Shown here: positions 2,324-5,243 of the stretch, piece after piece
Layout: every line of letters starts with the position of its first letter
How positions within the stretch are numbered: the first letter of the stretch is position 1
DNA from: a virus
Taxonomy: Duplodnaviria; Heunggongvirae; Uroviricota; Caudoviricetes
Length of the DNA: 5,243 nucleotides
Virus record (IMG/VR): IMGVR_UViG_2734482541_000012
Reading direction: 5' to 3' (one strand)
The notes under the pieces: model-generated
Told to the model about the DNA's origin: nothing
Database searches by the model: none
Seen by the model: only the letters and a program-made list of their open reading frames with translations
Made by a program: the position numbers and the translations under genes

Positions 2324-5243
2324 ATGGGTAAAGGCAGCAGTAAGGGGCATACCCCGCGCGAAGCGAAGGACAACCTGAAGTCCACGCAGCTGCTGAGTGT
2401 GATCGATGCCATCAGCGAAGGGCCGGTTGAAGGTCCGGTGGATGGATTAAAAAGCGTGCTGCTGAACAGTACGCCGGTGCTGGACAGTGAGGGGAATACC
2501 AACATCTCCGGCGTCACGGTGGTGTTCCGGGCAGGTGAGCAGGAGCAGTCACCGCCGGAGGGATTTGAATCCTCCGGCTCCGAGACGGTGCTGGGTACGG
2601 AAGTGAAATATGACACGCCGATCACCCGGACCATCACGTCGGCAAACATTGACCGACTGCGTTTTACCTTCGGTGTACAGGCACTGGTGGAAACCACCTC
2701 AAAGGGTGACCGGAATCCGTCGGAAGTCCGCCTGCTGGTTCAGATACAGCGTAACGGTGGCTGGGTGACGGAAAAAGACATCACCATTAAGGGCAAAACC
2801 ACCTCGCAGTATCTGGCCTCGGTGGTGGTGGATAACCTGCCGCCGCGCCCGTTTAATATCCGGATGCGCAGAATGACGCCGGACAGCACCACNNNNNNNN
2901 NNNNNNNNNNNNNNNNNNNNNNNNNNGTCATACACCGAAATCATCGATGTGAAACAGTGCTACCCGAACACGGCACTGGTCGGCGTACAGGTGGATTCGG
3001 AGCAGTTCGGCAGCCAGCAGGTGAGCCGTAATTATCATCTTCGCGGGCGCATTCTGCAGGTGCCGTCGAACTATAATCCGCAGACGCGGCAATACAGCGG
3101 TATCTGGGACGGAACGTTAAAACCGGCATACAGCAACAACATGGCCTGGTGTCTGTGGGATATGCTGACCCATCCGCGCTATGGCATGGGGAAACGTCTT
3201 GGTGCGGCAGATGTGGATAAATGGGCGCTGTATGTCATCGGCCAGTACTGTGACCAGTCGGTGCCGGACGGCTTTGGCAGCACGGAGCCGCGCATCACCT
3301 GTAATGCCTGGCTGACCACACAGCGCAAGGCGTGGGATGTGCTCAGTGATTTCTGCTCGGCGATGCGCTGTATGCCGGTATGGAACGGGCAGACGCTGAC
3401 GTTCGTGCAGGACCGACAGTCGGATAAGGTGTGGGCCTATAACCGCAGTAATGTGGTGATGCCGGATGATGGCGCGCCGTTCCGCTACAGTTTCAGCGCC
3501 CTGAAAGACCGCCATAATGCCGTTGAGGTGAACTGGATTGACCCGGATAACGGCTGGGAGACGGCGACAGAGCTTGTGGAGGATACGCAGGCCATTGTCC
3601 GTTACGGTCGTAACGTCACGAAGATGGATGCCTTTGGCTGTACCAGCCGGGGGCAGGCACACCGCGCCGGGCTGTGGCTGATTAAAACGGAACTGCTGGA
3701 GACGCAGACCGTGGATTTCAGCGTGGGTGCTGAAGGGCTTCGTCATGTACCGGGCGATGTCATTGAAATCTGCGATGATGACTATGCCGGTATCCGCACC
3801 GGCGGGCGCGTGCTGGCGGTGAACAGCCAGACCCGGACGCTGACGCTCGACCGTGAAATCACGCTGCCATCCTCCGGCACCACGCTGATAAGCCTGGTTG
3901 ACGGGCAGGGGAATCCGGTCAGCGTGGAGGTCCAGTCCGTCACCGACGGCGTGAAGGTAAAAGTGAGCCGTGTTCCTGACGGTGTTGCTGAATACAGCGT
4001 GTGGGGGCTGAAGCTGCCGACGCTGCACCAGCGATTGTTCCGCTGCGTGAGTATCCGTGAGAACGACGACGGCACGTATGCCATCACCGCCGTGCAGCAT
4101 GTGCCGGAAAAAGAAGCCATCGTGGATAACGGGGCGCACTTTGACGGCGACCAGAGCGGCACGGTGAATGGTGTCACGCCGCCAGCGGTGCAGCACCTGA
4201 CTGCCGAAGTCACCGCAGACAGCGGGGAATATCAGGTGCTGGCGCGCTGGGACACGCCGAAGGTGGTGAAGGGCGTGAGCTTCCTGCTCCGTCTGACCGT
4301 AACAGCGGATGACGGCAGTGAGCGGCTGGTCAGCACGGCCCGGACGACGGAAACCACTTACCGCTTCACACAACTGGCGCTGGGGAACTACAGGCTGACA
4401 GTCCGGGCAGTAAATGCGTGGGGGCAGCAGGGCGATCCGGCGTCGGTATCGTTCCGGATTGCCGCACCGGCAGCGCTGTCGCGGATTGAGCTGACGCCGG
4501 GCTATTTTCAGATAACCGCCACGCCGCATCTTGCGGTTTATGATCCGACGGTACAGTTTGAGTTCTGGTTCTCGGAAAAGCGGATTGCGGATATCAGGCA
4601 GGTTGAAACCACAGCACGCTATCTTGGCACGGCGCTGTACTGGATAGCCGCCAGTATCAATATCAAACCGGGCCATGATTATTACTTTTATATCCGCAGT
4701 GTGAACACCGTTGGCAAATCGGCATTCGTGGAGGCTGTTGGTCAGCCGAGTGATGATGCATCCGGTTATCTGGATTTTTTCAAAGGCGAGATAGGGAAAA
4801 CCCATCTGGCTCAGGAGCTGTGGACGCAGATTGATAACGGTCAGCTTGCGCCTGACCTGGCTGAAATCAGGACGTCCATTACGGATGTCAGCAATGAAAT
4901 CACGCAGACCGTCAATAAGAAACTGGAAGACCAGAGTGCGGCAATTCAGCAGATACAGAAGGTTCAGGTTGATACAAATAATAACCTGAACAGCATGTGG
5001 GCTGTGAAGCTGCAGCAGATGCAGGACGGACGCCTTTATATCGCGGGTATTGGTGCCGGTATTGAGAACACCCCTGACGGCATGCAGAGTCAGGTGCTGC
5101 TGGCGGCGGACAGGATTGCGATGGTTAATCCTGCGAATGGCAACACAAAACCGATGTTTGTTGGTCAGGGCGATCAGATATTCATGAACGACGTGTTCCT
5201 GAAACGCCTGACGGCCCCCACCATTACCAGCGGTGGAAATCCA
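2324..5243 (+). CDS. J: Central tail fibre / host specificity protein J (lambda gpJ-like), 3'-partial; contains an internal N-gap at 2893..2926
   Basis: ATG 2324-2326 preceded by GGAG at 2312-2315. N-terminus [75 protein letters not shown]... matches lambda gpJ as I recall it. After the gap the frame changes from 2 to 0 and then reads without a stop to the last base (...[21 protein letters not shown]), which I checked codon by codon. The C-terminal receptor-binding part lies beyond the window. Confidence 0.93.
2893..2926. other. Run of 34 N (assembly gap or masked sequence) inside J
   Basis: Directly visible. The J reading frame is frame 2 before the run and frame 0 after it, so the N count is a placeholder, not the true length. 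Confidence 0.99.

Follow-up and report, generated by a model that had tools for sequence, protein, structure and literature searches.

A probable recombination-exchanged cassette covering most of the helical shaft in the central tail fiber gene J of a lambda-like prophage

Gene J of the lambdoid phages, which codes for the tip attachment or central tail fiber protein, has long been known to be mosaic. This report is concerned with one segment of that gene in the IMG/VR virus record IMGVR_UViG_2734482541_000012 (Caudoviricetes), of which a stretch of 5,243 nucleotides, called the window throughout, was analyzed. Its genes are those of the tail tip of a lambda-like prophage, namely the end of L, then K and I, and finally codons 1-972 of J, which begins at position 2324. 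The segment in question resembles other cases of mosaicism in lambdoid tail and tail-fiber genes in its sharp breakpoints, in its conserved junction sequences, in the free reassortment of its modules, and in the position of its junctions near domain boundaries; it differs from them in that what is exchanged is only part of a gene, a structural element from the middle of J, and not the receptor-binding tip on which the emphasis usually falls.

The closest described system is the J protein of phage lambda itself (gpJ), whose structure has been solved by cryo-electron microscopy (cryo-EM). The order of its parts includes the hub domains first, then, farther along, the beta-prism of the central straight fiber (CSF), and then the receptor-binding domain (PMC11101478; domain limits also in PMC10999833 and PMC13455828). 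Directly below the second fibronectin-like domain (FNIII-2) lies the alpha-helical shaft (AHS, residues ~809-861), a trimeric bundle of three helices; as long as the tail tube is closed, this bundle clamps together the three FNIII strings that lie beneath the tube (PMC11101478). When the receptor LamB is bound, the AHS flips by about 180 degrees, its upper helix (809-840) shortens, and residues 841-861 turn into beta-strands on top of the CSF, after which the FNIII strings separate, the tube opens, and the distance from FNIII to the fiber tip falls from 29.7 to 13.2 nm (PMC11101478).

A related arrangement is found in the central fibers of the F-type pyocins (F7, PMC12874032; F2, PMC13455828), which likewise consist of a hub, two FNIII domains, a trimeric coiled-coil shaft, and a beta-prism, and in which binding to the target makes the shaft refold; the initial portion of the coil has been proposed to stay as it is, as a non-switching "spine". 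The difference from the locus described here is one of length and extent, because the pyocin coil, found at the equivalent position, has 163 residues, roughly double the number here, and converts entirely to beta-prism (PMC12874032). The authors of the F7 study noted that lambda has no equally extensive switch (PMC12874032).

Our interpretation, to which we assign a probability of about 0.85, is that positions 4788-5174 on the plus strand represent one allele of a J cassette exchanged by recombination, and that this cassette comprises most of the AHS and the first ~60 residues of the CSF. The assignment of J itself (2324-5243, plus strand, residues 1-972 of 1165, cut by the window end) rests on the open reading frame (ORF), its translation, Pfam, and the Protein Data Bank (PDB), in which the best matches were lambda gpJ chains (8IYK and related entries, E=2e-120). 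Pfam returned the series Phage-tail_3, Ig_J, Ig_J_second, and Phage_Tail_Tip, all on the plus strand, with FNIII-1 (Ig_J, PF24421) at 4155-4469 (E=6e-42), FNIII-2 (Ig_J_second, PF24489) at 4479-4781 (E=2e-38), and the beta-prism (Phage_Tail_Tip, PF09327) at 4941-5231 (E=4e-26). The complete protein of 1165 residues was read in IMG/VR locus L013, which is 100% identical to the corresponding stretch of the window and whose J runs 193 residues beyond the window end, at residue 972, to a C-terminal domain of the phi458 type. The receptor-binding region is consequently outside the window, and the segment stands ahead of it, as had been expected from the letters alone.

The borders of the cassette were obtained from a sliding plot of identity between the window J and eleven phage J genes, together with a codon alignment with lambda. 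As far as ~4787, the window and lambda J agree at 95-97%; inside the block the agreement breaks down, and from 5175 onward the two are nearly identical again; a maximum-chi-square test places the breakpoint at 4794. The block covers J residues 821-949 here and 821-921 in lambda, i.e., 129 codons versus 101, a difference of 28 codons, and its amino-acid identity to lambda is 47% as a whole, 29% over the helical part, and 58% over the prism part, while the DNA of the helices is essentially unalignable. Between the window and lambda, the synonymous divergence (dS) is 2.13 in the cassette, whereas three segments upstream of it give 0.15, 0.14, and 0.22 and the downstream part gives 0.29; the nonsynonymous divergence (dN) in the cassette is 0.42, so that dN/dS is ~0.2. 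With synonymous sites saturated in the cassette and little changed on either side of it, local rapid evolution is excluded, and the comparison indicates that the cassette is probably an old allele that was swapped in between young flanks.

Both flanks are nearly invariant. The upstream junction block, which encodes GYLDFFKG (4764-4787, plus strand), contains 18 nucleotides identical to lambda at 4770-4787, whereas the downstream junction block (5175-5243, plus strand) is identical to lambda at 65 of 69 nucleotides and 100% identical to phage phi458; each is a likely crossover site. Junctions of natural recombinants occur at these and at neighboring points: one protein (P0106) joins the upstream residues of the window type (QPSDDAS) to a lambda-type shaft right after GYLDFFKG, so that its junction lies inside this motif, another (P0028) has its junction inside NEITQTV within the shaft, and two more (P0012 and P0092) have theirs in the prism part. 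The cassette would thus move between J genes by homologous recombination within the nearly invariant flanks, which would act as the crossover sites. Chi sites are absent from the window, which gives no link to Chi-stimulated exchange. The original prediction, made from the letters alone, had proposed an exchanged segment at 4780-5120 between flanks that looked like conserved J sequence, and on both counts it is borne out, with limits now at 4788 and 5174, since the divergent block with saturated dS is bounded by the two motifs it had named. The peptides it had quoted also lie in the J frame, with GYLDFFKG at the position given above, ITDVS...MQDG at ~4878-5030, and the downstream flank peptide at 5181-5243.

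Within the cassette, one further patch deserves mention. At 4980-5070, the window matches locus L009 (PhiR12_2_star) at 28-29 of every 30 nucleotides, inside a J gene that is otherwise 60-75% identical, and this patch, where the beta-prism begins, has the look of a short tract of gene conversion.

The cassette is 100% identical in phage phi458 and in the IMG/VR loci L012 and L013. Its best matches are phi458 (100%) and the 1H12 type (99.7%), and those of the whole gene are 640R1 (97.7%) and ev099 (97.4%). The cassette class of phages 21, phi458, 1H12, ev099, and vB_EcoS-640R1 is that of the window, with nucleotide identities of 97-100% and no substantive difference within the cassette, but these phages differ by ~3-6% elsewhere in J, and some of them have another type of receptor-binding domain. 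A separate search of the segment, which had been suggested as a way to detect a different phage lineage, did give best matches other than those of the whole gene, but all of them came from the same enterobacterial lambdoid pool, with no foreign lineage among them. At ≥90% identity the window-type cassette is present in 65 phage records, and a type from Stx phages that is 60-80% identical to it is present in 96; the lambda block is found at ≥90% in 85 phage records and matches the window-type phages only at 68%, over the prism part. For the helical part of the cassette, the DNA of lambda offers no match. Both the window type and the lambda type are hence found in dozens of phage records, and the window carries a common version. 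Among the phage records, GenBank MW057783.1, Campylobacter phage CJLB-4 (48,361 bp, approximately the length of the lambda genome), is 100% identical to lambda over the lambda shaft cassette and may represent lambda contamination or mislabeling.

The combinations in which the cassette is found point in the same direction. In the IMG/VR loci L086 and L089, a hub only 76% identical to that of the window is joined to a cassette that is 96-99.7% identical. Upstream of the cassette, the identity of Stx2_EH2201 to the window rises from ~75% before ~4092 to ~96% after it, near the start of FNIII-1, and that of VT1-Sakai rises from 73% to 94% at ~4452. Downstream, the 76 IMG/VR loci that contain the cassette and a complete distal J include three types of receptor-binding domain (in 34, 31, and 6 loci), and the same three types are found on lambda-type short shafts (P0120/P0113, P0092/P0097/P0106, and P0105). 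On these sequence comparisons, the cassette assorts independently of both the hub-forming N-terminal part and the receptor-binding domain. The sharp breakpoints (4788/4794 and 5175), the contrast in dS, this independent assortment, and the conserved flanks with natural junctions are together what is expected of a mosaic module. The homologues at the protein level come almost only from short partial J fragments at contig ends, a sample that is suited to examples of junctions and not to a clean census. Most of the proteins P0001-P0120 are partial J sequences on contigs of 300-900 nucleotides, some of which stand for thousands of member sequences, so that distal J evidently breaks short-read assemblies of E. 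coli, consistent with several near-identical prophage copies per genome.

Regarding the structure of this allele, the helical part of the cassette probably corresponds to the AHS, mainly on account of its position, together with its helicity and its strongly homologous flanks. FNIII-2 (Ig_J_second) ends at 4781 and the helical segment starts at ~4758-4788; the PF09327 beta-prism comes next, and then, in the full-length gene of L013, the receptor-binding domain. Hydrophobic residues recur with a period of 3.5-3.6 residues over the 47-residue stretch encoded by 4854-4994, a signal equaled by 0.9% of shuffled sequences (p~0.009), and no 28-mer elsewhere in J has as strong a heptad signal as the best one in this stretch. 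A monomer of residues 715-972 was modeled with AlphaFold2 from an alignment of 30 sequences and, with a mean pLDDT of 47, was used for secondary structure only; it shows helices at 4758-4835 and 4848-4997 between beta-rich segments, with pLDDT 59-70 in the heptad stretch. The first of them, shaft helix 1 (4758-4835, plus strand, residues ~811-836), is placed by this low-confidence model and by the position of the upper helix of the lambda AHS (809-840). It is followed by a predicted break at NGQL (4836-4847), also from the low-confidence model, and then by shaft helix 2, which holds the Q/N/K-rich heptad core (4848-4997, plus strand, residues ~841-890) and is placed by AlphaFold2, heptad power, and alignment with lambda. 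The upper part of the CSF within the cassette occupies 4998-5174 (plus strand), as given by PF09327 and the alignment. These results agree with the earlier view of the core as a heptad-like peptide, rich in Q, K, and N, between beta-rich segments.

Compared with the AHS and CSF of lambda gpJ (PDB 8IYK, 8XCI, and 8XCJ), the window shaft has the same position after FNIII-2 and before the PF09327 prism, nearly identical flanks, and the same helical, heptad-like character; its C-terminal ~21 residues, which belong to shaft helix 2, align with lambda residues 841-861, and the start of the prism (MWAVK...YxAGIG) is alignable as well. It differs in being 28 residues longer and in having the Gly- and Pro-containing break NGQLAP, which lambda lacks. 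The 28 extra codons, equal to four heptads, are placed by the gaps of the codon alignment at about 4833-4925 (plus strand), a position that is approximate and depends on the alignment, and, counted by lambda residues, the extra ones fall between ~835 and ~839 and precede the section that changes its fold in lambda. A test for internal repeats in the window shaft gave no significant repeat, and the idea that the extra residues represent a recognizable duplication is thus unsupported. If fully helical, they would lengthen the shaft by ~4 nm (0.15 nm each), and by analogy with lambda the window allele would do the same clamp-and-refold job as the lambda AHS, with a longer shaft.

Several points weigh against this interpretation. 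The helical part alone is only marginally similar to the lambda gpJ chains (E=0.01-0.05, 12 of 41 aligned residues identical, 29%), the AlphaFold2 model is a monomer of low confidence, and no solved structure contains a shaft of the long type. The counts given above are of phage records and not of independent lineages. The upstream junctions at ~4092, ~4452, and 4788/4794 lie near Pfam borders (the start of FNIII-1 at 4155, the FNIII-1/FNIII-2 border at 4469/4479, and the end of FNIII-2 at 4781), but with three cases the preference of J recombination junctions for domain boundaries is suggestive only. Finally, any functional effect of the extra 28 residues is purely inferred.

Shafts can be compared by the number of residues between two conserved anchors, FFKGxI and DGxxYxAG. 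By this measure, the lambda-type shaft has 55 residues, the window type 83, and an extra-long type (P0091, and the isolated phage PhiR40_1) has 156, and all three lengths coexist among the lambdoid phages of E. coli. The extra-long shaft has a significant internal repeat of 29 residues, and its allele (P0091; PhiR40_1, PV340560.1, 35873-36304) contains three or four such repeats, NSLTQLVAKKNEDQTLAIAQVSQKVDRV and similar. Its length nears that of the fold-switching coiled coil of the F-type pyocins, and it is present in a plaque-forming isolate, PhiR40_1. The window shaft, with ~80 residues and a predicted break at NGQL, is not the uninterrupted coiled coil of ~160 residues that characterizes F7, and its similarity to the F2 pyocin fiber is marginal (E=7e-4). 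The F7 motif, SxSxxMxxLxS, which recurs in alternating orientation through the switching region of F7, has three relaxed matches in the window shaft versus 0.92 expected (p=0.066, not significant), with two adjacent matches in opposite orientation directly before the prism; lambda gave zero matches in the same scan, and the extra-long allele was not enriched in the motif. One may speculate, although we regard the idea as rather doubtful, that the shaft cassette is a length-variable "spring" that preserves the heptad register and whose steps of ~28-29 residues set both the reach of the fiber and the extent of the helix-to-prism conversion when the tail fires. The natural versions of 55, 83, and 156 residues occur in J proteins that hardly differ otherwise.

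The composition of the region calls for separate comment, since it was the compositional shift that first drew attention to the segment. The core at 4860-5040 is indeed richer in AT, with a GC content of 0.47 versus 0.606 in J upstream of 4500, which puts it among the lowest 1% of 181-nucleotide windows in J. Its peptide is enriched in Q (14.8% versus 6.2% in J as a whole), N (9.8% versus 4.7%), and K (6.6% versus 3.4%), and also in I, and it has zero P and almost zero G. The shift, however, does not coincide with the exchanged segment, because the GC content at third codon positions (GC3) steps down from ~0.74 to ~0.55-0.62 at ~4500, the 5' edge of FNIII-2 and ~290 nucleotides ahead of the cassette start, and remains low to the window end, with overall GC at 0.497 in the immediate upstream flank (4500-4787) and 0.517 in the cassette. 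The same GC3 step, at J residues ~700-750, was present in 10 of 10 other J genes examined (lambda and nine others), and in overall GC it is visible as a fall from 0.63 to 0.50-0.54 in lambda, phi458, and phage 21. In the loci L001-L011, the step extends from J residue ~730 to the end of J, and GC3 reaches 0.35-0.5 in some receptor-binding domains. Inside the core, GC at second codon positions (GC2) drops to 0.20-0.30 and GC3 holds at ~0.60; because it is GC2 and not GC3 that drops, the added AT-richness reflects amino-acid composition. When the core peptide was recoded with the codon usage of upstream J, the expected GC was 0.517, which accounts for ~0.09 of the 0.13 drop, so that roughly two-thirds of it is due to amino-acid composition. 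Low GC is therefore a trait that all alleles examined share and that extends over the entire last third of J, and to it the Q/N/K/I-rich composition of the helix is added. The sliding analysis of GC and codon usage thus upheld one half of the original prediction, that composition in J is non-uniform, and not the other, that the step lies at the segment and signals exchange.

Four other explanations of the segment were weighed. An AT-rich block could be a recent import from a phage lineage of lower GC, with its compositional border as the mosaic junction, and the GC3 of the cassette, 0.61 where 0.74 would be expected from upstream-J codon usage (z=-3.6), is in favor of it. We nevertheless consider this improbable: the GC3 step falls inside sequence that is 94-97% identical to lambda and is shared by lambda and the other J alleles examined, so that the boundary of a horizontally acquired compositional island is neither at 4788 nor specific to carriers of the cassette, the extra AT of the core sits in codon position 2, and the close relatives of the cassette all come from lambdoid phages of E. 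coli, Shigella, or Salmonella. It is still less probable that the segment arose without any exchange of DNA, from a lambda-like ancestor that changed in situ under rapid positive selection and gained 28 codons by insertion. Diversifying selection is plausible in a surface-exposed fiber that is critical for infection, and a dN of 0.42 is high, but a dS of 2.1 inside the block against 0.13-0.29 in the flanks, with borders sharp to a few codons, argues strongly against it, as do J genes only ~75% identical upstream that carry a cassette 96-100% identical, and the pairing of both cassette types with the same receptor-binding domains. Least credible of all, to the point of being negligible, is an assembly artefact in which two prophage copies of J were joined in an N-containing scaffold. 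A chimeric scaffold join does exist upstream, in gene K, and J is multi-copy in most E. coli genomes (sequences ~97% identical occur in 4657 of 5426 complete genomes, at a median of three places per genome), but the stretch 2927-5243 has zero Ns and is 100% identical and collinear in two independent contigs, L012 and L013, and the isolated phage phi458 matches 4724-5243 without a single difference.

A more serious possibility, though still one that we hold to be the less likely, accepts the exchange of the cassette and regards the differences in shaft length and sequence as functionally neutral, carried along with linked receptor-binding domains. A single species is infected by phages of either shaft length, and the shaft of phage 434, which uses a different receptor from that of lambda, is of the lambda type at 98%, both of which can be read in this sense. 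Simple hitch-hiking, on the other hand, is at odds with a cassette that assorts independently of the receptor-binding domain, the dN/dS of ~0.2 in the block indicates purifying selection, and the difference between the window and lambda is exactly four heptads, with the longest class made of 29-residue repeats, which suggests constraints that preserve the register.

Features on the other strand or at the level of RNA were ruled out as an explanation of the region, because an Rfam search of it returned no families, promoter-like and terminator-like sites in it are at chance level (terminator-like, 2 versus 0.8 expected), and the one antisense ORF is without a family. This ORF, of 562 codons on the minus strand (3117-4805), spans the GC-rich part of J, with its ATG at 4805 inside the cassette region; it has a sub-threshold Pfam hit only and most likely owes its existence to the high GC3 of the coding strand. 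At 4760-4785, overlapping the GYLDFF junction codons, there is a weak hairpin, ATCCGG..CTGGAT, with TTTTTC after it.

The remainder of the window bears marks of its assembly. Within J, a run of 34 Ns (2893-2926) stands for 30 nucleotides of L013; since the two differ in length, the frame is shifted, and for this reason J is split in ORF lists at that point. In gene K, a direct repeat of 204 nucleotides (1081-1284 and 1352-1555, 98% identical) surrounds a run of 67 Ns (1285-1351), and in comparison with the unbroken L013 the window is 95.8% identical over 695-1284 and 99.6% over 1352-2892, with both parts overlapping the same 204 nucleotides. This looks like a scaffold join of two different prophage copies, which would have duplicated K artificially and left the window chimeric upstream of 1352. 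Gene I (1592-2263) is bimodal across the 80 IMG/VR loci that share J (L012-L091), with identities to the window of either ~92-100% or ~77-83%, pointing to a further probable module boundary between I and J.

By itself, this finding is of little importance, given that J is a mosaic gene and that the allele is ordinary and common, its identical sequence being already found in published phages such as phi458. For annotation, it follows that reduced GC in the last third of J characterizes the whole family and is no sign of recent import. What gives the locus its interest is that the polymorphic block is the helical shaft, which by cryo-EM is the conformational switch that opens the lambda tail, and not the receptor-binding tip. 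If the tentative spring idea were true, the window shaft of 83 residues would be an intermediate between the small switch of lambda and the full switch of the 163-residue pyocin coil, and the reassortment of modules would let phages tune triggering separately from the choice of receptor. The natural series of 55, 83, and 156 residues, together with the invariant junctions, offers an isogenic test of whether shaft length or the capacity to refold governs the triggering of ejection in non-contractile tails.

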